In this document: piece by piece, positions 41,125 through 59,159 of the stretch
How the letters are laid out: each line of letters begins with the position of its first letter
Position numbering within the stretch: the first letter of the stretch is position 1
IMG/VR virus record: IMGVR_UViG_3300042401_001180
Origin: a virus
Taxonomy: Duplodnaviria; Heunggongvirae; Uroviricota; Caudoviricetes
Reading direction: 5' to 3' (one strand)
DNA: 64,000 nt
Notes under the pieces: model-generated
The model's input: only the letters and a program-made list of their open reading frames with translations
Told to the model about the DNA's origin: nothing
Databases searched by the model: none
Position numbers and translations under genes: made by a program

Positions 41125-41126
41125 AA

Positions 41127-44289: not shown

Positions 44290-44309
44290 ATTTTTCCGTT
44301 TTGATTTAT

Positions 44310-44319
44310 ACAAAGATAG
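44310..44319 (-). promoter_or_regulatory. Bacteroidetes-type -7 box
   Basis: Minus strand CTATCTTTGT (TAnnTTTG). Confidence 0.4.
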
Positions 44320-44359
44320 GTAAAATACTTATACCGCCAAACATATTGGTAAAAAAATA

Positions 44360-44430
44360 ATAAAATTTGTGATTAGTAAAGGATTCGAACCAATGACACG
44401 TCCATAAAATGGATTGCTCTAACCAACTGA
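44360..44430 (-). tRNA. tRNA-like gene, possibly Lys(TTT); weak anticodon and T stems
   Basis: Acceptor GGTTAGT/ACTAATC and D-arm GCTC/GAGC are good, with a GGTTCGAATCC T-loop. The anticodon loop ATTTTAT is closed by only 3 bp. Confidence 0.4.
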
Positions 44431-44517
44431 GCTAACTAACCATATAAAATATAAATAATAATATTCAGGTTGTCAATAATTCACATACATTTTAAATACT
44501 AAATATATTTATTTTAT

Positions 44518-45150
44518 ATGAAAAATATAATCAAAAGAGTTTTAAAAGAATTTGTTGAATCAAAAGATATTACACTGCAAGAGATTTTTATAGATCCTTA
44601 CAATTTAATTTTATCTGAAGGTAAGTCTTTTGTAAAAATACCAAACGGTACCGAATCAATATTATTAAGAAAAATAGAATCATATTATAATTGGCCACCA
44701 ACAGTAAATAAAATATGGTGTTCCGATATTAAAGAAAAGTTTAAGGAAGGTATACCTATAAAGTCATGTTTAAAAAAGTTTGAATTAAGTTTAACAAATC
44801 ATTGGATTCAAAGATTGTTTAGAACAAGTGAGGACGATTATAAATTGTTAAACCCTCGAACAGGTAATGTTGGTAAGTTTTATAACCCTTCTATTGTTAA
44901 TCCTGATATTTTTGAGGGTATTGAGTTATTTTTTAACAGTAAAGATAAGATTAATGATTTTATTGATAACTCAAAAAACTGGATTCCTTTAAGTGATAAA
45001 TTCATAATTTTAAAGTCAAAATCCTATCAAACAATTATAGAATTAAAAAAAATGGATCAGGGAACATATAGGGTAATATTCATAACACAAATCAAAGGTG
45101 TTCCGTTTTTTGATACCCCTGAGTTGAAAAAATCAAGATTAATAAAATAA
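44518..45150 (+). CDS. hypothetical protein (210 aa) with MKNIIKRVLKEF N-terminal family motif
   Basis: ORF followed by a terminator. Confidence 0.5.
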   Translation: MKNIIKRVLKEFVESKDITLQEIFIDPYNLILSEGKSFVKIPNGTESILLRKIESYYNWPPTVNKIWCSDIKEKFKEGIPIKSCLKKFELSLTNHWIQRLFRTSEDDYKLLNPRTGNVGKFYNPSIVNPDIFEGIELFFNSKDKINDFIDNSKNWIPLSDKFIILKSKSYQTIIELKKMDQGTYRVIFITQIKGVPFFDTPELKKSRLIK

Positions 45151-45152
45151 AA

Positions 45153-45185
45153 AAGGTGGGTTACCCCACCTCAGTTACACTTATT
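45153..45185. terminator. rho-independent terminator (minus-strand sense strongest)
   Basis: aaaaaaGGTGGGttaCCCCACC. The minus strand is followed by TTTTTTATTTT. Confidence 0.6.
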
Positions 45186-45405
45186 ATCGTCAAATGTACG
45201 ACGCCTGTTGGGTACTTACAGGTGAACCGATGATTACCGTCTTTCGACGTATTCGGGGGTACATCCCTCCTTTTCAATCACCCCACTAACCCCTAAAGGT
45301 TGGTGGATGACTTTTTATATGGAAAATCATAAAACCATTATCTCAATTCGATACATCAAAGATATATGTATTATATATAAATTCCAAACTTTTTAGTAAA
45401 TATTT
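45186..45405 (-). ncRNA. ORF-free, GC-enriched structured region (candidate ncRNA, function unknown)
   Basis: Nested hairpins (CGTCaaatgtaCGACG, CCGAtgattaccgtctttcgacgtatTCGG, GGGatgtaCCC). No ORF. Sits between the terminator and tRNA-Met. Confidence 0.3.
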
Positions 45406-45409
45406 TTTG

Positions 45410-45483
45410 TGGTCCTTGTTGGAATCGAACCAACCACCTACTGATTATGAGTCAGTTGCTCTAACCGAATGAGCTAAAGGACC
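45410..45483 (-). tRNA. tRNA-Met(CAT) (or Ile-LAU; anticodon CAT)
   Basis: Acceptor GGTCCTT/AAGGACC, D GCTC/GAGC, anticodon stem ACTGA/TCAGT with loop CTCATAA, T stem GTTGG/CCAAC. Confidence 0.8.
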
Positions 45484-45644
45484 TAATTGGTGGAGATTTG
45501 ATGCCAACGTATGATCACCCCTACGTCTCGTTTCTGCGTATTCGGTACTCCACCTTTGTAAGTTCCTCTTACTTACACCCCCATTCGTGGACTTTCCGAC
45601 ATCCCAATGGTTTTTACCGTCCTATCGGAGTCAGGTAACCGCTG

Positions 45645-45722
45645 ATGTCAGGGTGGGATTCGAACCCACAATGAACAACCTTTTTACGGGACTTGGTACC
45701 ATACCTCATTACACTCCTGACA
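45645..45722 (-). tRNA. atypical tRNA-like element (perfect 7-bp acceptor and T-arm, no canonical anticodon arm)
   Basis: Acceptor TGTCAGG/CCTGACA and T-arm GTGGG-TTCGAAT-CCCAC. The 44-nt internal region does not give a 5-bp/7-nt anticodon hairpin. Confidence 0.35.
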
Positions 45723-45887
45723 AACTTCGACTCTTCAGCTTTCTACTCCCAGCACCGAGGAATTGTATATAACTTAGCCCATCTCACCGCTGTGTGGGAA
45801 CTGAAGTTTATCGTCTTTTTCTTATCGTAAAGATAAACAATATAAATAATATAAACAATAATGGTGTCATAATTTTTTAAGTTTTTG

Positions 45888-45987
45888 TAGTCAGGACAGG
45901 ATTCGAACCTGTATGGTAATTTTTTCAGTACCTCCACAACCCATGGATTTACGTGGTCTTTGCGTCTACCAATTTCGCCACCTGGCT
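45888..45987 (-). tRNA. atypical 100-nt tRNA-like element (Leu-like 5' half GCCAGGTGGCGAAATTGGTAGACGC)
   Basis: Acceptor AGCCAGG/CCTGACT (one mismatch), Leu-like D-arm, T-arm ACAGG-TTCGAAT-CCTGT, variable-arm-like hairpin GGTActgaaaaaatTACC. The anticodon region is non-canonical with a 15-nt loop. Confidence 0.35.
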
Positions 45988-46320
45988 ATGTTGAGGGTGA
46001 GAAGCCCTCTGTGTTGTTGACTAGTTTAACCTACCCTAAAGTCATTTTAGGTACAACCGTTTTCTGTTTACTATGATGGTAAAGCTTTCACCACAAGGGC
46101 CGGTCTTCGTCAGCTCAATATCTATCCCTTTCTCAAGGGAACAACACAATATTGTTGATAGTGTTGGGATACCCGTCTCGTCCCAATCTTAACTGCATCG
46201 TCTGAGTTTTCTCAGGGCCCTCGGCAGGGGGTGCTGAATTCCTGATCCACTCAGGATTGTCGACATCCGTTGAGATGGGGGAAAACCACTATCAATATTT
46301 TCAAAGAACTTTTTTCCTTA
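45988..46320 (-). ncRNA. GC-enriched ORF-free structured region (candidate ncRNA; tmRNA or other not confirmed)
   Basis: ~330 nt with local GC well above the genome background (e.g. cagggccctcggcagggggtgctgaattcctgatccactcaggattgtcgac). Immediately downstream of promoter repeat copy 1. No ORF. Confidence 0.35.
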
Positions 46321-46380
46321 TTTGTTTAACAAAGATATGTAATCTATTTCAATCTACCAAATCTTTTTTTACTTTTTTTT
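46321..46380 (-). promoter_or_regulatory. repeated strong promoter module, copy 1 (A-rich UP-like tract, -33 TTTG, -7 TATCTTTG)
   Basis: Minus strand aaaaaaaagtaaaaaaagaTTTGgtagattgaaatagattacaTATCTTTGtt. Near-identical to 47640..47700. Confidence 0.55.
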
Positions 46381-46546
46381 GTGGGACCCGCTCCCCACAC
46401 TGAACTTGTACTTCGTTCTATTAAGCGTTTTTTTCAGTTTTTTTAACCAATCAGTATTCGTGTTAGTTTTAACAAATTTAAATCTTCCTGATTCGCAAGT
46501 TCCTGATAAAACTTCTCTCATCATTCATTTGTATTAATTGTTTATT

Positions 46547-46619
46547 TGGTGGACACTGTGGGAATCGAACCCATACGATCTGATTGCAAATCAGTCGACC
46601 TGCCGTCGGCATCAGGCCC
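46547..46619 (-). tRNA. tRNA-like element with encoded CCA; anticodon loop contains TTGCAA (Cys-GCA or Ala-TGC); acceptor stem does not pair
   Basis: T-arm ATGGG-TTCGATT-CCCAC and a 3' end AGTGTCC-A-CCA. The 5' region GGGCCTG... is not complementary. Possible pseudo-tRNA or part of a larger RNA. Confidence 0.3.
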
Positions 46620-46624
46620 ATTTG

Positions 46625-46696
46625 TGCGGGTAGAATGAATCGAACACTCATCTCCACATTGGAAGTGTGGAGTAATAACCATTATACGATACCCGC
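46625..46696 (-). tRNA. tRNA-Gly(TCC)
   Basis: Acceptor GCGGGTA/TACCCGC, anticodon stem CCACA/TGTGG with loop CTTCCAA, T-arm GAGTG-TTCGATT-CATTC. Confidence 0.8.
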
Positions 46697-46702
46697 TTAT
46701 TG

Positions 46703-46795
46703 TACTGACGGTTGGATTCGAACCAACGTTTTAAACTTACCGCTACAGGCATAGATGATATAAGCATCCACTGGTACGTCAGCATAATCGTCAGT
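46703..46795 (-). tRNA. atypical 93-nt tRNA-like element (perfect acceptor ACTGACG/CGTCAGT and T-arm; candidate anticodon hairpin GGATG-CTTATAT-CATCT; 25-nt variable region)
   Basis: Folding gives anticodon TAT with one GU pair, an aberrant D-arm and a very long variable region. Confidence 0.35.
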
Positions 46796-46867
46796 CTTTC
46801 CTGACCGTCACCCCCAACCCACAGGTATGAACCCGTATCGTAGTAAAGCTTGGTTGGCTATTAGTTG

Positions 46868-46939
46868 TTGCAGGAGAAGGGTTCGAACCTCCGACCTCAA
46901 GGTTATGAGCCTTGCGAGCTACCACTGCTCTATCCTGCG
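46868..46939 (-). tRNA. tRNA-Met(CAT), initiator-like (C1xA72 mismatch)
   Basis: Acceptor CGCAGGA/TCCTGCA with a C1-A72 mismatch, D GAGC/GCTC, anticodon stem CAAGG/CCTTG with loop CTCATAA, T-arm GGAGG-TTCGAAC-CCTTC. Confidence 0.7.
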
Positions 46940-46960
46940 ATATACCATTTGTAGTTTAGT

Positions 46961-47000
46961 AGTTGACTCAAACTCTCGTTTCACCATCTTGAGTCAACAG
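46961..47000. other. perfect 10-bp inverted repeat hairpin (GTTGACTCAA-n17-TTGAGTCAAC)
   Basis: Read directly from the sequence. A second imperfect hairpin GGGAGTAGG...CCTACCCCC lies at 47075-47120. Confidence 0.5.
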
Positions 47001-47120
47001 GTTAATGCACTTTACGAGTTTCCCGTTTCTTACAACCACAATATTTTTATTTCAATGAACTTCTTCTGTCTTCACGGGAGTAGGACACCAACCTCTAACT
47101 TCCTACCCCCGTTCTCTGTC

Positions 47121-47165
47121 TTACAAAGATATGTAATCACTTTTGATTTGCCAAATTTTTATTGA
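47121..47165 (-). promoter_or_regulatory. repeated promoter module, copy 2 (-33 TTGgcaaatcaaaagtgattacaTATCTTTG)
   Basis: Shares the TATCTTTGTAA -7 region and an upstream A-tract with copies 1 and 3. Confidence 0.5.
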
Positions 47166-47655
47166 ATAAAACTTCCCCTTCTTTCATATATTCCTTTTTC
47201 ACTTTTTCAATCAAGGATTTTAAAGCAGTGTTACCTTGTGCTGTTTTTTTAAGATCCTCAAGTTTAGGGTTACCTTTAAAACCAACCTTAGTATAAGACG
47301 TTCCGTTTTCTTTACCCCACACAATGTTAGTTAAACACAATTTGTCGATTTTCTTTTGTTCCTTTTCTTTTTCTTTCTCGAATAAAAGATTATCAATAAC
47401 TGAATCGAGTGTTTGTGGATAATCAAATTCTTTGGGTAAAGTTTTACAATAGTTATAAACCTCGTTTAAAACTTTAGACATACCTTCATAAGGTTGAACA
47501 TTTGTATTACCACCGTGTCCGTCATTTTGAGCATATGCAGTTTTTTTACCGTTTATAAAAACATCAGCCATAAAACAAGTAGTTTCTTCGCTAAACATTT
47601 TGTTAATCTTTACATTTTTAAGTTCTATTTTCATAATGTTTTTTTTGTTTATCAA
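47137..47655 (-). CDS. hypothetical protein (172 aa)
   Basis: ORF downstream of promoter copy 3. Confidence 0.5.
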   Translation of the reverse strand: MINKKNIMKIELKNVKINKMFSEETTCFMADVFINGKKTAYAQNDGHGGNTNVQPYEGMSKVLNEVYNYCKTLPKEFDYPQTLDSVIDNLLFEKEKEKEQKKIDKLCLTNIVWGKENGTSYTKVGFKGNPKLEDLKKTAQGNTALKSLIEKVKKEYMKEGEVLFNKNLANQK

Positions 47656-47700
47656 ATGTAAGTAATCTATTTCAATCTACCAAAACTTTTTTTACTTTTT
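47640..47700 (-). promoter_or_regulatory. repeated promoter module, copy 3
   Basis: Minus strand aaaaaaaagtaaaaaaagtTTTGgtagattgaaatagattacTTACATTTGat, about 90% identical to copy 1. Confidence 0.5.
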
Positions 47701-47706
47701 TTTCTG

Positions 47707-47790
47707 TAGTCCGGAAGGGACTTGAACCCTTAATCCCTCATGGGAATTTGATTTTAAGTCAAACGTGTATACCAATTCCACCACCGAACC
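47707..47790 (-). tRNA. tRNA-Leu(TAA)
   Basis: Acceptor GGTTCGG/CCGGACT (two GU pairs), anticodon stem TTTGA/TCAAA with loop CTTAAAA, long variable arm TCCCatgaGGGA, T-arm AAGGG-TTCAAGT-CCCTT. Confidence 0.75.
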
Positions 47791-47867
47791 ATTTTACCAA
47801 TATGTCAAAGAACCCTTCTTGTTTGTTCTACAAATATAAAACTTTTTTTCTATTCGCCAAACACCTA

Positions 47868-47900
47868 AAACAAAAAAACCCCTCTTTGTTAGAGAGGGGC
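47868..47900 (-). terminator. rho-independent terminator (minus strand)
   Basis: Minus strand CCCCTCTCTaacaaAGAGGGG followed by TTTTTTTG. Confidence 0.6.
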
Positions 47901-48075
47901 TTCAAAATTTATTATATAATTAATTTATCATACCATCTCCTTATAGGAACGATCCTCAGCTATCGCCAATCCGCCTAATAATATGATATGTAAATTTTTC
48001 ATTTGCGTTTTTATTTGTTTTGTTATAAATATATGTAACTTTTCAAAAGTGTCAAGTTATTTCATATTTTTTTAA

Positions 48076-48447
48076 TTACCCCCATCTTCCTAACCATTGC
48101 ACAACTTCTTCAGCTCCGTCAGATGAATTACGTTCAGGTGTTTGATCTTCTTTACGTCCAAATCTAGAGCTTTCATAATAAACCTTATCGTCTTTGTGTT
48201 TCGCATCTGAGTCTTGAACTCTATATGTCCCGTTATCATTCAAATAAATTCTATATTTGGTTCCATCCAAATTCAACCAATTTTTATTTAACGGCCAACT
48301 ATATTCAATATCATTTTTTCTCAATGTACGAGCCATTAAATCTAACGGGTTTTTTGGCATATCTCTATCCATTCCAAACCCTTCTTTAATCACTTTTTCG
48401 ATAACATCAATTAATTGTGATTCTGTAAATCTGACAGTTTTTTTCAT
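48076..48447 (-). CDS. hypothetical protein (123 aa), N-terminal MKKTVRFTESQLIDVIEKVIKE family motif
   Basis: ORF. Confidence 0.5.
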   Translation of the reverse strand: MKKTVRFTESQLIDVIEKVIKEGFGMDRDMPKNPLDLMARTLRKNDIEYSWPLNKNWLNLDGTKYRIYLNDNGTYRVQDSDAKHKDDKVYYESSRFGRKEDQTPERNSSDGAEEVVQWLGRWG

Positions 48448-48466
48448 TATATATTATTTATATTTT

Positions 48467-49090
48467 TTATGCAAATTCTTCATCCTCAAAGTCCTCAAAC
48501 TCATCAAAAGGATCCTCACGTCTTTTTGTTATTATCGTTCCTTCACGATCGATTTTACTACCAGATTTGAATGTGTCTTTTGGTAATTTTCTATAATTTT
48601 CAGGTTTATAATCTTCAGGGTGTCTTTTTTTTTGAATAAAGTCGTCCCAACCTTCATCTAATTCTTCATCTCTTCCTTTTGTTTTTGCAAATGCTTTCTT
48701 TAAATCATTTACAGAATGTCCACCAATTGAATCGTATGGTTCATCTTCATCAGCAAAGCCTTCTTTTTCTAATAAATATTCAATATCGTACGCCAATTCA
48801 TCATAATTATAATCATGTAATACGTCCACAATATAATACTCATCCATTTCATTAATAGCATCAATTGACATTCCAAGTTCGTTTTCCAAGATATCTCTTG
48901 CTTCTTCAATTAAATCTTGAAGTTCTTGTTCACCTCTATCAGTCTCACCCCACTCTTCATCTTGTTGTTGTTCTTCATCACCATAGTATGGATCATACAT
49001 ACTTCTGTCTTTATAGTCATCGTTTTCTTTAATAACACGTTTAACAATACGTGCTAAATCCGATTCTGTTAATCTTATAATTCTTTTCAT
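48467..49090 (-). CDS. hypothetical highly acidic protein (start revised to MKRIIRLTESDLARIVKRVIKE)
   Basis: Track ORF trimmed to the Met carrying the family motif. D/E-rich body. Confidence 0.5.
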   Translation of the reverse strand: MKRIIRLTESDLARIVKRVIKENDDYKDRSMYDPYYGDEEQQQDEEWGETDRGEQELQDLIEEARDILENELGMSIDAINEMDEYYIVDVLHDYNYDELAYDIEYLLEKEGFADEDEPYDSIGGHSVNDLKKAFAKTKGRDEELDEGWDDFIQKKRHPEDYKPENYRKLPKDTFKSGSKIDREGTIITKRREDPFDEFEDFEDEEFA

Positions 49091-49100
49091 TATATATTTT

Positions 49101-49607
49101 TTAGTCTTCAATATTATCTAGTAAATCTACTATTTTATCCAACGACCTTTCTAACGCATTAAGATTTTTTATCGTTGCGTCGTCTTCAACCATTTCTTCT
49201 AACTCTCTAACTTTATCATAAATTTCACTTAGTTTGTTTAGTAATGATTCAAGATCAATATCATAATCTTCAAAATCACTTTTACGTAATTTCATATCTC
49301 TTTTTTCAAATGAAGAAACCAATTGTTTTAAAATACTCAAAGTTTCTCTAAGATCTAAAAAATCATCCATTAATACACTCGCAACTTTATATTGTGCATA
49401 TTCAAAAGAATCTCCTTTTAACATCGATTTAAACTTACCAAACCCAATCATTAGTTTACTAATCATCCCAAAAAGACCTGTCGCACCTTTAGAAGCGATT
49501 CTTCTATTTTTCATTTCTTTTTCAATGGATTCATATCCACCTTCATTCATTACACGTTTAACAATTCTTGTTAAATCGGATTCTGTTAATCTTACAATTT
49601 TTTTCAT
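49101..49607 (-). CDS. hypothetical protein (168 aa), N-terminal MKKIVRLTESDLTRIVKRVMNE family motif
   Basis: ORF. Confidence 0.5.
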   Translation of the reverse strand: MKKIVRLTESDLTRIVKRVMNEGGYESIEKEMKNRRIASKGATGLFGMISKLMIGFGKFKSMLKGDSFEYAQYKVASVLMDDFLDLRETLSILKQLVSSFEKRDMKLRKSDFEDYDIDLESLLNKLSEIYDKVRELEEMVEDDATIKNLNALERSLDKIVDLLDNIED

Positions 49608-49641
49608 AATTTTTTATTTTATATATAAATAGTCTATTAAT

Positions 49642-50586
49642 TTAAAAATCAATTCTTCCACTGAAATTTTCTAACTTGGTACATTCCCTCACTTCAACAA
49701 AATCGTCTTCCATATCAACAGATTCTCTTCTTTCTTCAACCGTTATGTCATTATCATCAAAATGATTTACATATACCTCAACGTTAAACGGTATTAGTTC
49801 ATCATCTTCTTCAATACTATTATAGTGTTCTAATGATATAAATTCTCCCTCATATTTTAAAAATCCATCACCTAACGTCACATTAACACTTCTTCTTATA
49901 CTATACTTCAAATCACTTGAGTCTAAATTTCCATCACCATCACAACTCCCACAACCATACTCACCATGTCCGGCACATTCTTCACACGAAAAATTTCCAT
50001 CACCATCACAATTAAAGCACTCTAAATTCCCTTTACCACTACAATCTCTACACTTTTCCGTACCATCACCATCACAATGAAAACATTCGACTTCTATTTC
50101 ATCCCCCTCATCATCTTCTTCTGTTTCAGTACCTTTACCATCACAGTAATGACAATCATCGATCCCTTCACCTGAACAAGTATCACAATCTATAGTACCA
50201 TCACCATCACACGAATCACAATCAATTCTACCATTACCATCACAATTCCCACAATGTTCACTTCCTGTACCATCACAATCATCACATTCAGCTTGTATAT
50301 GTACGGTATCTTCATATAAATCAATAATTGATGTATGTAAATTCATAAGAATCCCCTCTAACGCGGATAATTGGCTTTTTCTATTTAAAATAAAAAACGT
50401 AGCAATTAACACTTTAATTTTTTCTGGGTTACTACTTGTTTTGGATAATAATAGTTTGGCGAAATGATCAGTACTCATACACTTTTTAATATCACGAATT
50501 CCGATGAATCTATCTCCCTTTTCGCTTTTTAATAAATCTGCAATATTTTTTGATATTGAATATATTTTTTTAAATTCAGGTGTCAT
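49642..50586 (-). CDS. CxxC-repeat (DnaJ zinc-finger-like) acidic protein
   Basis: About 14 tandem C-x-x-C-(D/S)-G-x-G units (CDDCDGTG, CGNCDGNG, CDSCDGDG, CDTCSGEG, CHYCDGKG, CFHCDGDG, CRDCSGKG, CFNCDGDG, CEECAGHG, CGSCDGDG). Confidence 0.55.
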   Translation of the reverse strand: MTPEFKKIYSISKNIADLLKSEKGDRFIGIRDIKKCMSTDHFAKLLLSKTSSNPEKIKVLIATFFILNRKSQLSALEGILMNLHTSIIDLYEDTVHIQAECDDCDGTGSEHCGNCDGNGRIDCDSCDGDGTIDCDTCSGEGIDDCHYCDGKGTETEEDDEGDEIEVECFHCDGDGTEKCRDCSGKGNLECFNCDGDGNFSCEECAGHGEYGCGSCDGDGNLDSSDLKYSIRRSVNVTLGDGFLKYEGEFISLEHYNSIEEDDELIPFNVEVYVNHFDDNDITVEERRESVDMEDDFVEVRECTKLENFSGRIDF

Positions 50587-50626
50587 ATTTATAAATAGTA
50601 TTATAAAATAAAAAAACGTGTATTAT

Positions 50627-50974
50627 TCATACACGTTTCACTAACTCTGTTGGAACCAATCTTCTTAAAGGTATTCCGTAATTTGAAATAAACCAATCAA
50701 GAAGTAACCCTTCAGTTTGATCATCAAAATATCCTTCAATATCATTTATTAGTTCCATTGGACAATTCAAATCTCTACCGTGTCCAATATTATTAAAATA
50801 GAAAAATACAAAATATGTTATTTTAGTTTTACTATCCTTTAAATAAAATGTTATAGTATCCTCATTATAATCGTAACCTAACTTTAAATTATTTAATTGG
50901 GGATAAAACTTATCAATATAATCTGAAAAGGATTTTTCTAAACTCATAGTTGTTGAATTTGAATCATAATCCAA
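50627..50974 (-). CDS. hypothetical protein (115 aa)
   Basis: ORF. Confidence 0.45.
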   Translation of the reverse strand: MDYDSNSTTMSLEKSFSDYIDKFYPQLNNLKLGYDYNEDTITFYLKDSKTKITYFVFFYFNNIGHGRDLNCPMELINDIEGYFDDQTEGLLLDWFISNYGIPLRRLVPTELVKRV

Positions 50975-51237
50975 TCTACTTCTCCTTCCGATAAGTTACC
51001 TTTAACACCATCAGTTATATGTGTATCATAAGTAATATCATATTTTTTTTCATCCCCAAACAAAACAGCAATTTCCCACTCATTTTCATTTGATGTGTAA
51101 CTACCATAACCTCTATCACTATATGGTGTTTTATATCTTACAACAGAAATACCGTAACCATTAGGAAAAAATAATATTCCGTGTAACCCTTCACCAAAAG
51201 AATGGGGTTTAAATGTGATATCTTTAAATGATTTCAT
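50944..51237 (-). CDS. hypothetical protein (97 aa)
   Basis: ORF. Confidence 0.45.
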   Translation of the reverse strand: MKSFKDITFKPHSFGEGLHGILFFPNGYGISVVRYKTPYSDRGYGSYTSNENEWEIAVLFGDEKKYDITYDTHITDGVKGNLSEGEVDWIMIQIQQL

Positions 51238-51406
51238 AATTAATTAAATAAATATTTTTTGTGTTTTAACTTTCTATTATATAGATTCTTTGGTGTCTCA
51301 ACTCTTGACACAAATCTCCCATCAAAAAATCCCGCCTCAAGTTGATCCTTTCTTACCTGAGTTCTTTTCATTCTATGTTGGTCATATGTTTTCATCTTGT
51401 TTTTTT

Positions 51407-51820
51407 TTACAAAGATATGATTTTTTTTAAATTATCCCTTTCTTGATCTCGTTTTTTAATTGTTTCTCTTTTATCGTATAGTTTTTTACCTCTACCAATA
51501 ACAATAACCATTTTTATTAATCCCTTGTCGTTGGTGAATATTTTATATGGTACAATTGTTAATCCTTTATCCAATCGTTTACTGATGTCCTTTATTTCCT
51601 TTTTATTCAAAAGTATTTTAATGTCTCGTTTCTCGTCTGTTGAAGTTATGTTGATGTTTCTAACGTACATTTCATTATTTTTTAAATAACAATATGTATC
51701 GACAATGCTAACCTTATTATTTTTTATGGATTTAACCTCATTACCTACCAATACAACACCGCATGTGTATTTTTCAATAATCTCATACTCAAAACCTACC
51801 TTTTTGTTTGTTATTAACAT
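51407..51820 (-). CDS. smpB: SsrA-binding protein SmpB homolog
   Basis: Residue pattern NKKVGFEYEIIEKYTCGVVLVGNEVKSIK...SIVDTYCYL...RKLLL..KEI..L.....GLTIVPYKIF.....IKMVIVIGRGKKLYDKRETIKKRDQERD matches the conserved SmpB fold signature (EVKS, GKKxxDKR, basic tail). Confidence 0.7.
   Translation of the reverse strand: MLITNKKVGFEYEIIEKYTCGVVLVGNEVKSIKNNKVSIVDTYCYLKNNEMYVRNINITSTDEKRDIKILLNKKEIKDISKRLDKGLTIVPYKIFTNDKGLIKMVIVIGRGKKLYDKRETIKKRDQERDNLKKIISL
51408..51417 (-). promoter_or_regulatory. Bacteroidetes-type -7 box
   Basis: Minus strand ATATCTTTGT. Confidence 0.35.
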
Positions 51821-51833
51821 TGTTTAATTTTTT

Positions 51834-51914
51834 GTACCCCCGGAGAGACTCGAACTCTCACGCCCTTCGGCATCAGATCCTAAATCTGACATGTCTACCA
51901 TTCCATCACAGGGG
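51834..51914 (-). tRNA. tRNA-Leu(TAG)
   Basis: Acceptor GCCCCTG/CGGGGGT, anticodon stem TCAGA/TCTGA with loop TTTAGGA, long variable arm, T-arm GAGAG-TTCGAGT-CTCTC. Confidence 0.7.
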
Positions 51915-51923
51915 CATTTATTT

Positions 51924-51995
51924 GAGCTCAGGGAGGGATTTGAACCCACATACCAGGCGTTTGCAGTGCCGGACCTTACCAATCGGACACCTGAG
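51924..51995 (-). tRNA. tRNA-Cys(GCA)-like (short anticodon stem)
   Basis: Perfect acceptor GCTCAGG/CCTGAGC and a T-arm TTCAAAT loop. Loop CTGCAAA is closed by a 3-bp GGC/GCC stem. Confidence 0.45.
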
Positions 51996-52001
51996 CATAT
52001 A

Positions 52002-52457
52002 TTAACGGCAGTGATGATCTGCCGCTCTTGTTGCAATTTGGTTGTCAGGTTTAATATTTGTTTTATACCCCAATGACGTTGCCCAACCAACAACTGGTTG
52101 TACAAGTTTTGAACTAAAGTGTTTTTCTTCACTATTATAATCCAAATCAATCTCAACCTTAACTTTTACTTTTTGAGTTAACCATTCGGCAACCTCAATT
52201 GAATAATCAGCTTCATTCCAAAGACGCGTCCATTTGTCTTTTATTTTTTTTACTTTTTGTTTGTGTAGGATATAGTGAACACCTCTGTTACCATACCTGT
52301 AAGCAATTACCGTAACGTATACGGTACTTCTTCTGTGGTTTTGTGAATCTGTACCGATGTGCATTTCAACCCAAGGACATTCCTTTAAAACGTCTAAGGT
52401 GTGATTTACCACATCAGGAACCGTATCACCATTAACCGTTCTAAATACTCTGTTCAT
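52002..52457 (-). CDS. hypothetical protein (151 aa)
   Basis: ORF packed between tRNA genes. Confidence 0.5.
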   Translation of the reverse strand: MNRVFRTVNGDTVPDVVNHTLDVLKECPWVEMHIGTDSQNHRRSTVYVTVIAYRYGNRGVHYILHKQKVKKIKDKWTRLWNEADYSIEVAEWLTQKVKVKVEIDLDYNSEEKHFSSKLVQPVVGWATSLGYKTNIKPDNQIATRAADHHCR

Positions 52458-52473
52458 TGTTTCTATTTTTTTG

Positions 52474-52546
52474 TGGACAGAGAGGGTTTCGAACCCCCGA
52501 CTCCAGGATCTTCAATCCTGAGCTCTACCAACTGAGCTACCTGTCC
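52474..52546 (-). tRNA. tRNA-Phe(GAA)
   Basis: Acceptor GGACAGG/TCTGTCC, D GCTC/GAGC, anticodon stem CAGGA/TCCTG with loop TTGAAGA. Confidence 0.8.
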
Positions 52547-53056
52547 TTATTTAACTTGAAACGCAAATTTCACAATACGTTTCTTTTTTACCGCATCATC
52601 CCAATTACCAATTACAACACCATCTTTAATCGTGAATGCATGTCCCTTAACAAGGATGAAGAATGTACCGACAGGGTTTTGTTTTGCAAAAGTCCCCACA
52701 GTCATTTCTCTTTTAGTCACAACACCTTTAGTTTTAACTTCGTATCTCAAACTGTGAGTCCCCATTTCACTTTTAGTTCCCAAACATTTAACTTTTTTAT
52801 AGTTAATTTGTTTTCTATCTTCAGCAATTTGTCTCATTTTTAAAACCGTACCGTAAGTCCCCTCACGATCTTTACGCCCAAAATTCTCTTTAACATATTT
52901 GTGAGCGTAGTCATATGAAACCCCAAATGAAGATGCAAATGCTCTAACAACACAATCGTTTCTTTCTCCTCTTGCGATAGGTGATTCTGCATAACCCTTA
53001 ATCGCTTCTTTCGTCGTACAATATGGTAATCCTTCTTTCATATTGTAAAGATACAA
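52547..53056 (-). CDS. hypothetical protein (169 aa)
   Basis: ORF ending at the tRNA-Phe 5' end. Confidence 0.5.
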   Translation of the reverse strand: MYLYNMKEGLPYCTTKEAIKGYAESPIARGERNDCVVRAFASSFGVSYDYAHKYVKENFGRKDREGTYGTVLKMRQIAEDRKQINYKKVKCLGTKSEMGTHSLRYEVKTKGVVTKREMTVGTFAKQNPVGTFFILVKGHAFTIKDGVVIGNWDDAVKKKRIVKFAFQVK

Positions 53057-53086
53057 AATTTTTTTTAACTGGCAAAATTAAATTTG

Positions 53087-53159
53087 CACTCCAGGAAGGG
53101 GTTGAACCTCCGACACCCGGATTTGGAATCCGGTGCTCTACCAACTGAGCTACTGAAGT
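53087..53159 (-). tRNA. tRNA-Trp(CCA)
   Basis: Acceptor ACTTCAG/CTGGAGT, anticodon stem CCGGA/TCCGG with loop TTCCAAA. Confidence 0.8.
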
Positions 53160-53223
53160 ATATGTTAAACCTGTTTTTGTTACAATAAACTAACCTTGTT
53201 TATTGATGCAATTTTTAGTTTAG

Positions 53224-53295
53224 TACCCCCTCAGAGATTCGAACTCCGACCTGACACCTTAGAAGAGTGTTGTACTTCCGTTATACGAAAGGGGT
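53224..53295 (-). tRNA. tRNA-Arg(TCT)
   Basis: Acceptor ACCCCTT/AGGGGGT, anticodon stem ACACT/GGTGT with loop CTTCTAA. Confidence 0.75.
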
Positions 53296-53468
53296 AAATA
53301 AAAGATGATGAATAACTTTATCAGGAATCTTGGCTTGGAAGCCTTCACACACCATTAGAGAGTTGGGTTGTTACATCAATACAATTAAGATTGAATACCT
53401 TTCCTTAGTGTGTACCCTTACGACACGTCTCTCCACGTCTGTCATTCTACGCATTGTATCATCTTTTG

Positions 53469-53541
53469 TACCTTCGGCGAGATTCAAACTCACATCTTGT
53501 GGTCCGTAGCCACAGGTTCTATTCTATTTAACTACGAAGGT
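53469..53541 (-). tRNA. tRNA-Arg(ACG)
   Basis: Acceptor ACCTTCG/CGAAGGT, anticodon stem TGTGG/CCACA with loop CTACGGA. Confidence 0.75.
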
Positions 53542-53548
53542 ATTGTTG

Positions 53549-53621
53549 GGAGTATACCGGGAATCGAACCCGAATCGTAGGTACCACAAACCTAAGTCTT
53601 AACCGTTAGACGATACACTCC
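53549..53621 (-). tRNA. tRNA-His(GTG) with encoded G-1
   Basis: Extra 5' G pairs with discriminator C. Anticodon stem TAGGT/ACCTA with loop TTGTGGT. Confidence 0.8.
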
Positions 53622-53639
53622 ATATAAAATTTTTCTCGG

Positions 53640-53709
53640 TACCGATAAAGGGTATCGAACCCAATGACATCCAGGATATGAGCCCGGATCGGAAACCTTT
53701 CCTATCGGT
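53640..53709 (-). tRNA. tRNA with CAT anticodon (third CAT tRNA; Met or Ile-LAU), short D-arm
   Basis: Acceptor ACCGATA/TATCGGT, anticodon stem CCGGG/CCTGG (one GU) with loop CTCATAT. Confidence 0.55.
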
Positions 53710-53715
53710 ATTTTG

Positions 53716-53801
53716 AGGAAGACATTGGAATCGAACCAAATACCCTTACGGGTACATCTCGCTTAGCAGGCGGACCCTATCGCCATCAAGGTTTATCTTC
53801 C
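53716..53801 (-). tRNA. tRNA-Ser(GCT)
   Basis: Acceptor GGAAGAT/GTCTTCC, loop CTGCTAA, long variable arm TACCCgtaaGGGTA. Confidence 0.7.
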
Positions 53802-53805
53802 GTAG

Positions 53806-53879
53806 TGCTCATAACAGGACTCGAACCTGTAACCTCCGACGTATCAGGTCGACTATCTAACCAATTGATGTATATGAGC
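53806..53879 (-). tRNA. tRNA-Ile(GAT)
   Basis: Perfect acceptor GCTCATA/TATGAGC, anticodon stem TCGAC/GTCGG with loop CTGATAC. Confidence 0.75.
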
Positions 53880-53885
53880 TTGTTG

Positions 53886-53960
53886 CGGATCAGATAGGAC
53901 TCGAACCTATTATCTTCCGCTTAACAGGCGGTAGCTTATAACCACTTAAGCTTCTGATCC
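53886..53960 (-). tRNA. tRNA-Asn(GTT)
   Basis: Acceptor GGATCAG/CTGATCC, loop CTGTTAA. Confidence 0.75.
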
Positions 53961-53964
53961 AGTG

Positions 53965-54050
53965 TGGGAGAGGAGGGACTTGAACCCCCAAGTTCCATTA
54001 CAGAAGACGGTTTTACAGACCGCTGAGCCAACCAATTGCTCAACTCTCCC
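53965..54050 (-). tRNA. tRNA-Tyr(GTA)
   Basis: Acceptor GGGAGAG/CTCTCCC, loop CTGTAAA, long variable arm. Confidence 0.75.
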
Positions 54051-54181
54051 AGTTCAGGAAAGGGGAAGATGGTTCGGTGAACATCCCCTTTTATGATTGG
54101 CGTTACTATGACAGTTAAAACTCCGACATAACTACGAACTACTGACACGTTAACGTTATATCATTCCCCAATCAACCTTTG

Positions 54182-54255
54182 TACACTCTACAGGGATCGA
54201 ACCTGTGACCTTTTGCGTATCAGACAAACGCTACTACCATCTGAGCTAAGAGTGT
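54182..54255 (-). tRNA. tRNA-Ile(GAT), second copy
   Basis: Perfect acceptor ACACTCT/AGAGTGT, anticodon stem TTTGT/GCAAA with loop CTGATAC. Confidence 0.65.
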
Positions 54256-54328
54256 GTGTTTTAGTTTCTTGGAACGAAGATAACCATTTTTTGGTAACTA
54301 TCGTTCTTTTTTACTAAATATTTTTTGT

Positions 54329-54379
54329 GACCCCTCCATTAAAAGTGGAGTGCTCTGAAACCAACTGAGCTACGAAGAC
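54329..54379 (-). pseudogene. tRNA-Lys(TTT) 5' fragment (acceptor, D-arm, anticodon arm, variable loop present; T-arm and 3' acceptor absent)
   Basis: GTCTTCG-TA-GCTC-AGTTGGTTTC-AGAGC-A-CTCCA-CTTTTAA-TGGAG-GGGTC, then no T-arm or CGAAGAC 3' strand within 150 nt downstream. Confidence 0.5.
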
Positions 54380-54384
54380 ATTAG

Positions 54385-54460
54385 TCGGGATACCAGGACT
54401 CAAACCTGGATGATGTCCACTTCCCAAAAGTGGCGACTTAGTCAATTAGTCCACATCCCG
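54385..54460 (-). tRNA. tRNA-Pro(TGG)
   Basis: Acceptor CGGGATG/TATCCCG, D GACT/AGTC, anticodon stem CCACT/AGTGG with loop TTTGGGA. Confidence 0.75.
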
Positions 54461-54471
54461 TTATTTTACAG

Positions 54472-54557
54472 AGGAGAGAGCGGGATTCGAACCCGCGGAA
54501 CCGTGAAGTTCTCCGGTTTTCAAGACCGGTGCAATAAACCAACTCTACCATCTCTCC
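54472..54557 (-). tRNA. tRNA-Ser(TGA)
   Basis: Perfect acceptor GGAGAGA/TCTCTCC, anticodon stem CCGGT/ACCGG with loop CTTGAAA, long variable arm. Confidence 0.75.
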
Positions 54558-54564
54558 TTATTGT

Positions 54565-54634
54565 TTTCCCCCAAGGGTTCGAACCTCGATTCCATGGACC
54601 AAAACCATGTGTCCTGCCGATTAGACGAGGGGAA
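54565..54634 (-). tRNA. tRNA-Gln(TTG)
   Basis: Acceptor TTCCCCT/GGGGGAA, anticodon stem CATGG/CCATG with loop TTTTGGT. Confidence 0.65.
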
Positions 54635-54678
54635 AATTTATGAAGCCAATATGTCAAAGAACTTTTTCTTTTTGTTTG

Positions 54679-54751
54679 AGGTTCCTATCAGGTTCGAACT
54701 GATGACTCCGGGTTACAAAGCCGGGATATTACCAAACTATACTAAAGAACC
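54679..54751 (-). tRNA. tRNA-Thr(TGT)
   Basis: Acceptor GGTTCTT/AGGAACC, anticodon stem CCGGC/CCCGG (one mismatch) with loop TTTGTAA. Confidence 0.6.
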
Positions 54752-54759
54752 AAATTTTT

Positions 54760-54800
54760 GGGTATAAAAAAACCCTAACTGTTTTGAGTTAGGGTCTTAT
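54760..54800 (-). terminator. rho-independent terminator (minus strand)
   Basis: Minus strand GACCCTAACTcaaaacAGTTAGGGTT followed by TTTTTTAT. Confidence 0.6.
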
Positions 54801-55136
54801 ATTTCTTTTATATTTTTAGTTAATCTTTATCAACTCATAAATGAAACTGCCCTAATATGTGACTTAAGCGTACGATACACGTTAAACGACCACTGAATGC
54901 TCGGGTTACAAATGTTCATATGTCTATTAGTTGTTTTCATCTTGTTATAAATATATCGTTGTTTCTAAAAGTTTTAATTCTTGTACAAATTTAGTTGTTT
55001 TTTTCTATTTGACAAGTGTTTTTTAAATAATTTTCTTGTTCTTCATCCAATCTACGTAAAAACACGTAGTAATCTTCTGATTCTATGAACTCGTTGTGTA
55101 TTAATTCTAATATTTCTTCCATTGTTTTTTTGTTAG

Positions 55137-55208
55137 TAGTCCCGCCTGGATTCGAACCAGGAATAGAAGATTAGAAATCTACTGTGATATCCCTTTCACT
55201 ACGGAACC
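55137..55208 (-). tRNA. tRNA-Arg(TCT), second copy
   Basis: Acceptor GGTTCCG/CGGGACT, D GTGA/TCAC, anticodon stem GTAGA/TCTTC (one mismatch) with loop TTTCTAA. Confidence 0.6.
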
Positions 55209-55214
55209 ATATTA

Positions 55215-55400
55215 TTAGATTTTCTTAACCTCGTAAACGTGTCCCGAATCTGAATTGGTTTGGAAAATATCTTTCATATCTTCAGCCTCTTTTTCAGTTT
55301 CAAACTCCCAAACCTCAGTATCACTATTTAAAAGTATCACAGGTACTTTATTACTCATAGGGTTTGAATTCATTTTAACGTGTTTAACTATTACGTACAT
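55215..55400 (-). CDS. hypothetical protein (61 aa)
   Basis: ORF. Confidence 0.4.
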   Translation of the reverse strand: MYVIVKHVKMNSNPMSNKVPVILLNSDTEVWEFETEKEAEDMKDIFQTNSDSGHVYEVKKI

Positions 55401-55481
55401 ATCTTTGTTTTTTTATAAATATAAGAAATAAAAAATCCCCAGTCAATAAAGAAAGGGGGATTAAAATATTCTTTTAAAATT

Positions 55482-56738: not shown

Positions 56739-56793
56739 ATTAATAAATATCCTATAAAATAAAAAAGGTGGAAGTAATTCCACCTTATTATTA

Positions 56794-58230: not shown

Positions 58231-58261
58231 TTTCTTTTTAACTATAAATATCACATAAATA

Positions 58262-58292
58262 AAAAAAGGTGAGATTTCTCTCACCTTTCAGG
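58262..58292 (-). terminator. rho-independent terminator (minus strand)
   Basis: Minus strand GGTGAGAgaaatcTCACC followed by TTTTTTTTATTT. Confidence 0.6.
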
Positions 58293-58351
58293 GTCGAACA
58301 CGGATTGTGTTTCGAACTACCACCACTTTGTTTTAAAGATAAACAAAGAAA

Positions 58352-59150: not shown

Positions 59151-59159
59151 TAAGATTTT

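Follow-up and report, generated by a model that had tools for sequence, protein, structure and literature searches.

A dense tRNA gene island with an embedded SmpB gene and tRNA-like elements in an uncultivated jumbo phage

The 64,000-nucleotide stretch of viral DNA analyzed in this work (IMG/VR record IMGVR_UViG_3300042401_001180, Caudoviricetes; the window hereafter) carries on its minus strand a dense island of tRNA genes, located within 10.8 kb between positions 44369 and 55208. We found that this island is a genuine feature of a known kind, composed of 21 canonical tRNA genes, a probable tRNA-Ser(GCU) gene, and 5 degenerate or tRNA-like elements (27 elements altogether). The explanation that we favour, with somewhat better than even confidence, is that this is the island of a jumbo phage of approximately 270 kb, with a probable freshwater Bacteroidota host, which boosts the decoders for A-ending codons.

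To define the island, tRNA genes were called with ARAGORN and with the Rfam tRNA model. At default settings, ARAGORN reported 21 tRNA genes in the window, all of them on the minus strand and between positions 44369 and 55208, and the Rfam model gave 21 matches at its gathering score (E 1e-6 to 7e-14), with tRNA-Pro(UGG) as a twenty-second match (47.8 bits) in a sensitive run with relaxed filters. Twenty genes were common to the default ARAGORN and the Rfam lists. ARAGORN alone added a 94-nt 'Ile(tat)' gene (46702–46795), and Rfam alone added tRNA-Cys(GCA) (51924–51996, 43.9 bits) and a 100-nt match (45887–45987, 34.3 bits). Relaxing ARAGORN brought in Cys(GCA), Ser(GCU) (53715–53801), an element with a CAU loop (53638–53710), and a 'Leu(taa)' (45644–45722). 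The T-loop motif GTTCRAWYC occurs at 22 sites, against 5.4 ± 2.2 expected, and 17 of these are in the island on the minus strand. ARAGORN, Rfam, and the T-loop motif counts thus agree on the minus-strand island that the original prediction, based on manual folding of the DNA, had placed here. Twenty of the 22 genes named in that prediction were confirmed by both methods, and ARAGORN called them on the minus strand with the anticodons listed: 2 genes with the CAT anticodon, Leu(TAA), Leu(TAG), Gly, Phe, Trp, His, Asn, Tyr, Pro, Gln, Thr, Cys, 2 Arg(TCT), Arg(ACG), Ser(TGA), and 2 Ile(GAT). The gene it had described as Cys-like is indeed tRNA-Cys by its Rfam score, but needed the relaxed ARAGORN setting. 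Ser(GCT) is probable, and a third CAT gene was not confirmed. The predicted number of at least 24 tRNAs is reached only if the 5 non-canonical elements (54319–54379, 53638–53710, 46702–46795, 45887–45987, and 45644–45722) are counted, and the list lacked both tRNA-Lys(TTT) (44369–44441), which is real (46.3 bits), and the tRNA-Ile(UAU) of this lineage.

The canonical genes together with Ser(GCU) serve 16 amino acids plus the initiator, and their anticodons approach a pattern of one tRNA per codon box, with U34 for four-codon and purine-ending boxes and G34 for pyrimidine-ending two-codon boxes. tRNAs for Val, Ala, Asp, and Glu are absent from the window. ARAGORN found no further tRNA or tmRNA in the 10 kb past the right edge of the window, and a look-up at the left edge returned only short contigs, none with tRNAs; approximately 200 kb of the approximately 270-kb genome lies outside the scope of these tRNA and tmRNA scans. 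Neither an aminoacyl-tRNA synthetase nor a suppressor tRNA was seen in the window.

We then compared this anticodon set with codon usage. The codons preferred by the phage are A-ending, with relative synonymous codon usage (RSCU) values of 3.9 for AGA and 3.3 for UUA, and include AAA, CAA, ACA, UCA, and CCA. Over-use was calculated against the pooled coding sequence of 80 Bacteroidota loci, which serves as a proxy for the host. Compared with this proxy, AGA is over-used 2.25-fold, UCA 1.88-fold, UUA 1.86-fold, ACA 1.68-fold, CCA 1.53-fold, AUA 1.52-fold, and AAA 1.46-fold, and each of these codons is matched exactly by a phage tRNA; AGA, the most over-used codon, has 2 Arg(UCU) genes. GCA, GUA, and CGA, for which there is no phage tRNA, are not over-used (Mann–Whitney p = 0.004). 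With strict wobble the canonical set could read 63% of the phage codons, and with superwobble 74%; GAA, GAT, and GTT are among the commonest codons despite the lack of Glu, Asp, and Val tRNAs. The adaptation to AT-rich codon usage that had been proposed for this phage is therefore borne out, relative to the proxy host only, by a G+C content at third codon positions (GC3) of 23% and by the cognate tRNAs of the over-used A-ending codons. That the phage substantially re-tools translation is an overstatement for a set without Val, Ala, Asp, or Glu tRNAs that can read 63% to 74% of the codons.

Several features of the window bear on its origin. The JGI contig 3300049596 Ga0502572_000001 (270,513 bp) is 100% identical to the window across 20.4 kb, and by sequence the source of the window appears to be an uncultivated jumbo phage of approximately 270 kb. 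According to the coordinate mapping, the window extends approximately 1.5 kb beyond the end of this contig (window 1–1565), which would fit a circular genome, a circularly permuted one, or a record with a different rotation; a 366-aa open reading frame (ORF) at 696–1796 was matched on other, shorter contigs only. Coding is overwhelmingly on the minus strand, G+C content is approximately 30%, and the standard code is in use, with TAA, TGA, and TAG all serving as stops. The encoded proteins include an endolysin (phrog_181, E 1e-69), a phage RNA ligase (11331–12464, minus strand; phrog_968, E 8e-58; PF09414 plus an OB domain), a thymidylate synthase, and DNA methylases. The RNA ligase is one of a set of RNA-repair-type genes, all on the minus strand, that also comprises a HAD_SAK_2 protein (6645–7223), a cyclic-phosphate-processing receiver domain of the cREC_REC type (13409–13816), and a Metallophos phosphoesterase (22307–23011); a kinase-like AAA_33 match was also obtained among the window proteins, without an assigned ORF. 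At 23679–24245 (minus strand) there is a homologue of Tad6, an inhibitor of the type I Thoeris defence (Pfam E 9e-14), and a GIY-YIG/NUMOD3 homing endonuclease (18101–18697) is one of the few genes on the plus strand. A two-component-like set occupies 39226–43339 (minus strand) and consists of a response-regulator receiver (39226–39663), a HATPase_c protein (39679–41124), and a PAS-PAS histidine-kinase-like protein (41720–43339).

In a megablast search of positions 44000–60000 against 50,697 GenBank phage records, no DNA-level relatives were found beyond 2 tRNA-length matches. At the protein level, IMG/VR viral contigs yielded 84 relatives of the SmpB encoded within the island, the closest being 77% to 83% identical and on contigs of up to 296 kb. 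The closest SmpBs of GenBank phages, from a 735-kb phage and the Prevotella Lak megaphages, are 46% to 50% identical, and the cellular relatives, the closest of which are almost all from Bacteroidota, reach at most approximately 50%. The host is, we infer, probably a freshwater member of the Bacteroidota; a lake origin is suggested by a 'freshwater-1' RNA in the related locus L001 (related loci are designated by L numbers) and by the sample set. A cellular origin of the region, either as a bacterial tRNA cluster or as a chromosomal fragment that was mis-binned, is very improbable. SmpB is universal in bacteria, and 2 histidine kinases with a response regulator are encoded in the window, but rRNA and housekeeping genes are absent from it, most of its ORFs have no Pfam or other family match, and the nearest SmpBs are those on viral contigs. 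The phage origin claimed for this DNA is instead supported by the identity to the 270,513-bp contig, the IMG/VR relatives, the endolysin, the RNA ligase, Tad6, and the GIY-YIG homing endonuclease, to which the DNA methylases and a GOLLD RNA described below can be added.

The genes of the island are described in the direction of the minus strand, on which all of them are located; genes given with a score only were called by both ARAGORN and Rfam. The upstream half (55208 to 51834, Arg through Leu(UAG)) starts with tRNA-Arg(UCU) (55136–55208, 56.2 bits), followed by Thr(UGU) (54678–54751, 53.0 bits), Gln(UUG) (54563–54635, 50.6 bits), the class II Ser(UGA) (54471–54557, 57.6 bits), and Pro(UGG) (54384–54460, 47.8 bits in the sensitive Rfam run). 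Next to Pro is a truncated relic of tRNA-Lys(UUU) (54319–54379; Rfam 21.9 bits, E 1.4, and sequence reading), which has kept the 5′ acceptor strand, the D arm, and the anticodon arm and has lost the T arm; L001 has an intact Lys(UUU) directly after Pro, syntenic to the relic. The array continues with the first copy of Ile(GAU) (54181–54255, 59.7 bits), the class II Tyr(GUA) (53964–54050, 51.3 bits), Asn(GUU) (53885–53960, 55.7 bits), the second copy of Ile(GAU) (53805–53879, 60.3 bits), and the probable class II Ser(GCU) (53715–53801). The latter was called by relaxed ARAGORN and scored 34.9 bits on the Rfam tRNA-Sec model, below the cutoff of 47; L001 has a 95% identical copy, and default ARAGORN finds Ser(GCU) in L003 and L081. 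After the non-canonical cloverleaf with a CAU loop (53638–53710, relaxed ARAGORN only) are His(GUG) (53548–53620, 54.1 bits), Arg(ACG) (53468–53541, 53.0 bits), a second and divergent Arg(UCU) (53223–53295, 53.6 bits), and Trp(CCA) (53086–53159, 65.3 bits). A gene for a 169-aa protein (52547–53056; phrog_3754, PHROG E 2.6e-26) then precedes Phe(GAA) (52473–52546, 65.6 bits), a gene for an RNase H-like protein of the YkuK/DUF458 type (52002–52457; PF04308, Pfam E 2.6e-25), Cys(GCA) (51924–51996; 43.9 bits and relaxed ARAGORN; identical in L081), and the class II Leu(UAG) (51834–51915, 53.4 bits).

The upstream half is followed by the gene for SmpB (137 aa, 51407–51820) and by 8 protein genes without known function (48076–51395) that divide the island. 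The product of one of these (314 aa) contains CxxCxGxG zinc-finger repeats of the DnaJ type. The CRISPR-DR44 repeat model gave a weak match within coding sequence (49106–49133, plus strand, 30.1 bits against a cutoff of 35), which is probably due to chance. The downstream half (47790 to 44369, Leu(UAA) through Lys) comprises the class II Leu(UAA), cognate to UUA (47706–47790, 58.4 bits), an initiator-type tRNA with a CAU anticodon (46867–46939, 64.4 bits), the aberrant 94-nt Ile(UAU)-like gene (46702–46795, ARAGORN only), Gly(UCC) (46624–46696, 63.2 bits), 2 tRNA-like elements that we assign to families 1 (45887–45987; Rfam tRNA, 34.3 bits over 100 nt) and 2 (45644–45722, a short 77-nt variant; 'Leu(taa)' in relaxed ARAGORN, Rfam 21 bits), a CAU tRNA of the Ile2 type (45409–45483, 72.3 bits), and Lys(UUU) as the last gene (44369–44441, 46.3 bits). 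A sigma-70-like promoter match is located immediately upstream of tRNA-Lys (44476–44448). The duplicated isoacceptors are strongly divergent, the Arg(UCU) copies sharing 41 of 73 positions (56%) and the Ile(GAU) copies 47 of 75 (63%), and are by this measure likely old or independently acquired.

The 3′ ends of the 27 elements follow a uniform pattern. None encodes CCA and all of them have C74, usually followed by A- or T-rich sequence, so that the earlier statement that most genes lack CCA was too cautious. Because the G+C content of the region is only approximately 34%, the invariant C74 is not a chance effect. All 9 tRNAs that lie in the sampled Bacteroidota loci have this signature (C74 and no CCA), as do most tRNAs of the phage relatives, and it may serve phage and host alike as a processing signal. 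The predicted extra G-1 of tRNA-His was also found, as a G at 53621 facing C73.

The original prediction had listed 3 CAT genes that fit a set of initiator, elongator Met, and lysidine-type Ile tRNAs. These genes were classified using PGAP-annotated E. coli genomes as an external reference. For 45409–45483, the best match in each sampled E. coli chromosome was a gene annotated as tRNA-Ile, and inspection of 2 of these matches, the ileX gene adjacent to mug and a copy in a prophage, showed the anticodon CAT in each. Identity was 58–60 of 75 positions to ileX-type genes versus 44 of 75 to the E. coli initiator; the elongator tRNA-Met, with which no explicit comparison was made, never ranked first. 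The acceptor stem of this gene (GGTCCTT/AAGGACC) contains C4:G69 and C5:G68, the acceptor-stem pairs that the E. coli TilS enzyme uses, so the proposed check of the CAT genes for TilS identity elements gave a positive result here. These matches, identities, and base pairs indicate that 45409–45483 is a tRNA of the Ile2 (lysidine) type and not a tRNA-Met. Its C34 is presumably converted to lysidine by the TilS of the host, which would allow the reading of AUA; no TilS-like Pfam match was found among the window ORFs scanned. The second gene, 46867–46939, has the C1xA72 mismatch that had been predicted for it, visible in both the ARAGORN structure and the sequence, and an A11:U24 pair in the D stem (GAGC/GCTC). 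Its anticodon stem (A29:U41, G30:C40, and G31:C39) includes only 2 of the 3 G:C pairs of initiators, and AU/GC/GC variants of this stem are known in some mycoplasma initiators. In all 5426 E. coli genomes its best match was the metZWV cluster beside amiC, to which it is identical at 57 of 73 positions versus 44–47 of 73 to Ile2, and it has a 92% match to a 635-kb megaphage. By these comparisons, 46867–46939 is an initiator-like tRNA.

The third CAT gene (53638–53710) did not behave as a canonical tRNA-Met. It has a 4-nt D loop, a T stem of 3–4 pairs, a U1:A72 pair, and C73 as the discriminator base, instead of the A73 that Met and Ile tRNAs carry according to the E. coli identity rules. With a cutoff as loose as E ≤ 10 it still had no match in Rfam, BLAST found no relative of it in approximately 4 Mb from related phages or in E. 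coli genomes, and the close relatives L081 and L001 lack it. Since this element is aberrant, carries C73, and lacks Rfam and BLAST support, an elongator tRNA-Met is not established in the island. A complete trio of initiator, elongator Met, and Ile2, amounting to a full decoding set for AUG and AUA, is hence unlikely, although 3 cloverleaves with a CAU loop do exist, 2 of them classify cleanly, and the third adopts, in its minimum free energy fold, the shape of a compact cloverleaf (z = -2.0) in which a loop of 7 nt (CUCAUAU) and a T loop of 5 nt are formed. The predicted trio stands for its initiator-like and Ile2 members, and 53638–53710 is possibly a pseudogene. A tRNA-Ile(UAU) gene likewise belongs to this lineage, in aberrant form at 46702–46795 of the window. 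In L081 and L001 a canonical 75-nt tRNA-Ile(UAU) (approximately 60 bits) lies just upstream of Gly(UCC). In the Ile(UAU)-like gene of the window, the acceptor, anticodon, and T arms are well formed, but a normal D arm is missing, the extra arm measures 24 nt, and the 5′ acceptor strand is duplicated. It is 84% conserved in L002, where it is also a 94-nt variant that lacks the usual D arm, and it gave no Rfam match, the sensitive run included.

SmpB is a ribosome-rescue protein that binds tmRNA. The SmpB gene embedded in the island encodes a full-length SmpB domain (PF01668, residues 3–133, E 9.8e-39), which matches SmpB chains in the PDB down to E 4.5e-33. Because the C-terminal tail motif GKKLYDKRETIKKRD is retained, the phage SmpB looks functional at the sequence level; its basic tail GKKLYDKRETIKKRDQERD, of the kind that trans-translation requires, aligns with the tails of solved SmpBs. 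No tmRNA was detected in the window by ARAGORN or Rfam or by ARAGORN in the 10 kb beyond its right edge. A tmRNA lies 0.5–1 kb from SmpB in more distant relatives (L008/9 and L062–L080) and 7 kb from it in L004/5, and the SmpB of the window may work with the tmRNA of the host or with a phage copy in the remaining approximately 200 kb of the genome. Huge phages with SmpB, tmRNA, and large tRNA sets have already been described (PMC7162821). A YkuK-like PF04308 gene just upstream of SmpB was found in L001–L003, L006, and L007, and also in the more distant L030 (1612–2058) and L039 (9519–9971), at 33% to 35% identity. This gene is absent from the 80 Bacteroidota smpB loci, and the YkuK-like and SmpB genes look like a phage-specific pair. 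The PF04308 family (YkuK/DUF458) is uncharacterised and is predicted to be an RNase H1-like endonuclease (PMC3985635); no solved structure was found for the PF04308 protein of the window.

A GOLLD RNA is encoded 4 kb upstream of the first tRNA gene (59578–59175, minus strand). This span holds the conserved 3′ domain and matches the RF02032 model over its full length (positions 1–416) with 323 bits, against a gathering cutoff of 150, and no tRNA lies inside the RNA. A terminator-like hairpin of 13 bp is situated just after it (59136–59108), and on its other side conserved non-coding DNA extends to about 60.4–60.7 kb; sigma-70-like promoter matches occur nearby at 60405–60370. GOLLD is conserved in L003–L007 and L081. 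Six sub-lineages have GOLLD beside SmpB on the same strand, as little as approximately 100 nt apart (L010, L203, L204, and L240), and in L008/L009 GOLLD is next to SmpB with the tmRNA on the opposite side. Across the loci with this neighbourhood (L008/L009, L010, L033, L037, L041, L203, L204, and L240, as well as L196, L199, L232, L236, L251, and L004/L005), GOLLD precedes SmpB by 0.1–1.2 kb on the same strand, or lies 0.4–1.3 kb from the tmRNA, or both, often with few or no tRNAs nearby. In loci chosen by their SmpB, GOLLD is frequently its neighbour. Among 46 GOLLD loci sampled independently of SmpB, 3 contained SmpB and 5 tmRNA (8 of 46 together), and 19 contained tRNAs. An obligatory link between GOLLD and SmpB was rejected on the basis of these 3 of 46 loci. 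The adjacency of GOLLD to SmpB or tmRNA is a recurrent minority arrangement, possibly reflecting inherited synteny. GOLLD has been tied to tRNA islands in the literature (PMC12286853, PMC6582537), and no description of its association with SmpB or tmRNA was found in the searchable literature. For another member, GOLLD env-38, a nanocage formed by a 14-mer has been reported (PMC12286853).

Two of the elements that had been set aside as uncertain led to recurrent families of tRNA-like sequences. Family 1, represented in the window by 45887–45987, has an acceptor stem AGTCAGG/CCTGACT, a D arm of the tRNA-Leu type (TGGCGGAATTGGTAGACGC), a T arm (ACAGGTTCGAATCCTGT), and A73-C74. The sequence between the D and T arms is unrelated across members and replaces the anticodon and variable arms. 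In a scan of IMG/VR with the 3′ 23-mer of the family, at least 120 viral contigs were found. The control 3′ 23-mers of the window tRNA-Phe and tRNA-Leu(UAA) matched 5 and 0 viral contigs, respectively, and with these numbers a sampling artefact was rejected as the source of the abundance of family 1. The loci examined contain 173 instances (162 unique) of 62–180 nt, with up to 7 per array (7 in L271 and 6 in L196; further examples in L285 and L306), either co-oriented with ordinary tRNAs or alternating with small ORFs. The D stem shows compensatory variants (GCG/CGC, GTGT/ACAC, GTG/CAC, and GCTT/AAGC), and in full-length folds the acceptor stem was closed in 94 of 104 unique elements of the first sample. 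The inserts measure 16–130 nt (median 55 nt) and are weakly structured (median z = -0.7). A shared 9-mer was found in 61 of 4095 insert pairs, a plausible anticodon arm in 15 of 132 inserts, with scattered anticodons, and orthologous copies 87% to 100% identical in related contigs for 40 of 121 inserts. Rfam sees these elements as weak tRNAs (31–41 bits) and has no separate family for them, and no match was found in GenBank phages. The copy in the window has an insert of approximately 49 nt, a C3xA70 mismatch, and a poor fold (z = +0.55), and may be decaying. In L081 the stem is intact, and the body, of 145 nt, is a different one.

Several origins and roles were considered for family 1. Recombination debris between adjacent tRNA genes does not account for it, as an internal T-arm-like hairpin is present in only 5 of 132 inserts. 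A role as the RNA partner of SmpB, in the form of an ORF-less mini-tmRNA, was not supported: SmpB was present in 1 and tmRNA in 3 of 120 loci selected by the family, and there is no G3:U70 pair; no specific link to SmpB or GOLLD was found. When the inserts were considered as spacer- or guide-like copies, they matched only orthologous elements in the approximately 4.1 Mb searched. Family 2 occurs in 36 viral contigs, including L001 (about 20261–20375) and L386–L420. Its commonest form is 115 nt long, with conserved internal hairpins and a helix AATGAG/CTCATT adjoining the T arm. The 77-nt variant of the window (45644–45722) has a tRNA-like acceptor stem and T arm, and a G-U pair closes its helix. 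The topology of this family recalls the tRNA-like domain of tmRNA, but G3:U70 is again missing. It is conceivable, at somewhat less than even probability, that 45887–45987 and 45644–45722 represent not decayed tRNAs but 2 classes of phage non-coding RNA that have the tRNA as their framework and have not been described before. The parts recognised by RNase P, RNase Z, and leucyl-tRNA synthetase are kept while the decoding domain is freely replaced, which argues against simple pseudogene decay, and by analogy with tRNAs both families would be excised by RNase P and RNase Z. Tentatively, we rank a role as tRNA-scaffolded small RNAs or as transcript punctuation first, decoys or anticodon-less, possibly Leu-chargeable acceptors second, and debris last. 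No description of comparable phage families was found in the literature searched.

Comparison with related loci suggests how the island evolves. An SmpB-centred, syntenic tRNA array is present in L001, L003, L006, L007, and L081, and the core order Thr-Gln-Pro...Tyr-Asn-Ile-His-Arg-Arg-Trp-Phe-Cys-Leu-SmpB is kept in relatives with SmpBs of 78% to 83% identity. L081, the flanks of which are approximately 97% identical to those of the window, has a different tRNA complement that includes the canonical Ile(UAU), and the alignment blocks between the two break at tRNA gene boundaries. From the position of these breakpoints, the island appears to evolve by cassette-like replacement of single tRNA genes, a process that explains the relics. 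L081 also has a 233-aa HTH (transposase-like) ORF in its tRNA array (5483–6184), and another of 371 aa (8573–9688) separates its YkuK-like gene from SmpB. Val, Ala, Asp, and Glu tRNAs are present in L001.

The role that we consider most probable for the island is the supply of decoders for the codons that the phage over-uses. In this model, the tRNA genes, which are co-oriented with the neighbouring phage genes, would be transcribed together with the flanking genes in a few polycistronic units, and the tRNAs would be excised by the RNase P and a 3′ nuclease of the host. Because all copies end in N73-C74 without CCA, the CCA-adding enzyme of the host would be needed to complete them. Aminoacyl-tRNA synthetases of the host would charge the products, and its TilS would turn the CAU tRNA 45409–45483 into a reader of AUA. 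The additional decoders for AGA, UUA, UCA, ACA, CCA, AUA, and AAA would then allow fast translation of phage genes late in infection, and the embedded SmpB, the RNA-repair genes, and GOLLD could form a broader module that safeguards the capacity for translation in the infected cell. Among the hypotheses for phage tRNAs, codon compensation has the widest acceptance (PMC10264068). Several points weigh against this reading. The codon comparison rests on pooled Bacteroidota loci in place of the actual host. GAA (6.4% of codons, 1.36-fold), GAT (1.43-fold), and GTT (1.63-fold) are over-used as well, yet neither the window nor the 10 kb to its right contains a tRNA for Glu, Asp, or Val, and G34 tRNAs such as those for His, Asn, and Tyr fit C-ending codons, for which the phage shows no preference. 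The steps of expression, processing, charging, and lysidine formation in this model are predictions from the sequence, and sigma-70-type promoter matches, in a scan that excludes Bacteroidota promoters, were not enriched (80 versus 70 ± 8.5).

An alternative to which we give a lower but appreciable probability is that the island mainly replaces host tRNAs that are cleaved or depleted by anticodon nucleases, by other tRNA-targeting defences, or by a shut-off induced by the phage, with SmpB rescuing tRNA-starved ribosomes and the repair enzymes mending cut tRNAs. Phage tRNAs are known to evade tRNA-targeting defences (PMC10264068), and tRNA arrays have been seen as putative anti-defence systems (PMC12803027). 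The RNA-repair-type set of the window (RNA ligase, cREC_REC, HAD_SAK_2, and Metallophos), the anti-Thoeris Tad6 homologue (23679–24245), and SmpB within the island would fit such a function, as would the strong divergence of the duplicated Arg(UCU) and Ile(GAU) genes (56% and 63% identity) and a near one-per-box set that is more like a replacement kit than a top-up for rare codons. However, the repair genes are 20–48 kb away from the island, and the fit of the tRNAs to the over-used codons and the absence of Ala and Val tRNAs for codons that are not over-used are predicted by codon supply and not by replacement. Codon supply is therefore the better supported of the two, which are compatible and could coexist. 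Much less probable is that the island is decaying or hitch-hiking cargo, acquired by recombination, of little function and in the process of being lost. Truncation or an aberrant structure affects 5 of its 27 elements, the window lacks the tRNAs for Val, Ala, Asp, and Glu that L001 has, and gene content varies even between strains that are 97% identical; on the other hand, 21 genes retain canonical structures with high scores (about 44–72 bits), C74 is invariant, the core order around SmpB is conserved, and the anticodon set follows codon over-use.

We also compared the island with known systems. It resembles the arrays of huge and jumbo phages, including Lak (PMC7162821), in having dozens of co-oriented tRNA genes in a genome of more than 200 kb, with SmpB and translation genes; it differs from them in that the window has no GenBank DNA relative, tmRNA, synthetase, or suppressor tRNA and uses the standard code. 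As in the GOLLD-associated arrays of a Lactobacillus brevis prophage and of Mycobacterium (PMC12286853, PMC6582537), a GOLLD on a phage-derived element lies beside a tRNA island in a lineage with a rare tRNA-Ile(UAU) gene, whereas here GOLLD is 4 kb from the first tRNA and has none inside, and in relatives of the window it is directly beside SmpB or tmRNA. The tRNA sets of Stx and lambdoid prophages likewise supply decoders for AUA and AGA, and 45409–45483 is 80% identical to an E. coli prophage tRNA-Ile(CAU) with the same GGTCCTT acceptor strand; those sets comprise 3–4 tRNAs next to lysis genes, unlike the near one-per-box set over 10.8 kb found here. The clusters of T4-like, T5-like, and other large phages are characterised by tRNA genes with no encoded CCA, 3′ processing and CCA addition by the host, an AUA-reading tRNA-Ile, and an RNA ligase for tRNA repair. 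The window tRNAs also lack CCA and include an AUA-type tRNA-Ile, and an RNA ligase is present, but no Pnk homologue was identified in the window, its repair domains are of the HAD_SAK and cREC kind, and the embedded SmpB-YkuK pair sets it apart. Plant mitochondrial t-elements, mascRNA, and engineered tRNA scaffolds retain the features for RNase P and RNase Z and have the anticodon domain replaced, and families 1 and 2 resemble them in keeping the acceptor stem, the T arm, and (in part) the D arm with a replaced anticodon domain.

Altogether, the island is one more case of a known jumbo-phage strategy, to be annotated with 21–22 tRNAs, among them an initiator and an Ile2, and with no proven elongator Met. 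It is at the same time a clean case of anticodon content that tracks codon over-use box by box, the absent tRNAs included. Additional interest comes from its neighbourhood (GOLLD, SmpB, and the YkuK-like gene) and from the tRNA-like families that were reached through the elements called uncertain. A GOLLD, an RNA able to form nanocages, in a conserved neighbourhood of SmpB, tmRNA (in relatives), a YkuK-like nuclease, and tRNAs directs experiments towards translation rescue and tRNA handling. Families 1 and 2 are missed by standard tools or mislabelled as odd tRNAs, and in this way inflate and distort the tRNA counts of phages; they may constitute a new class of tRNA-scaffolded RNAs.

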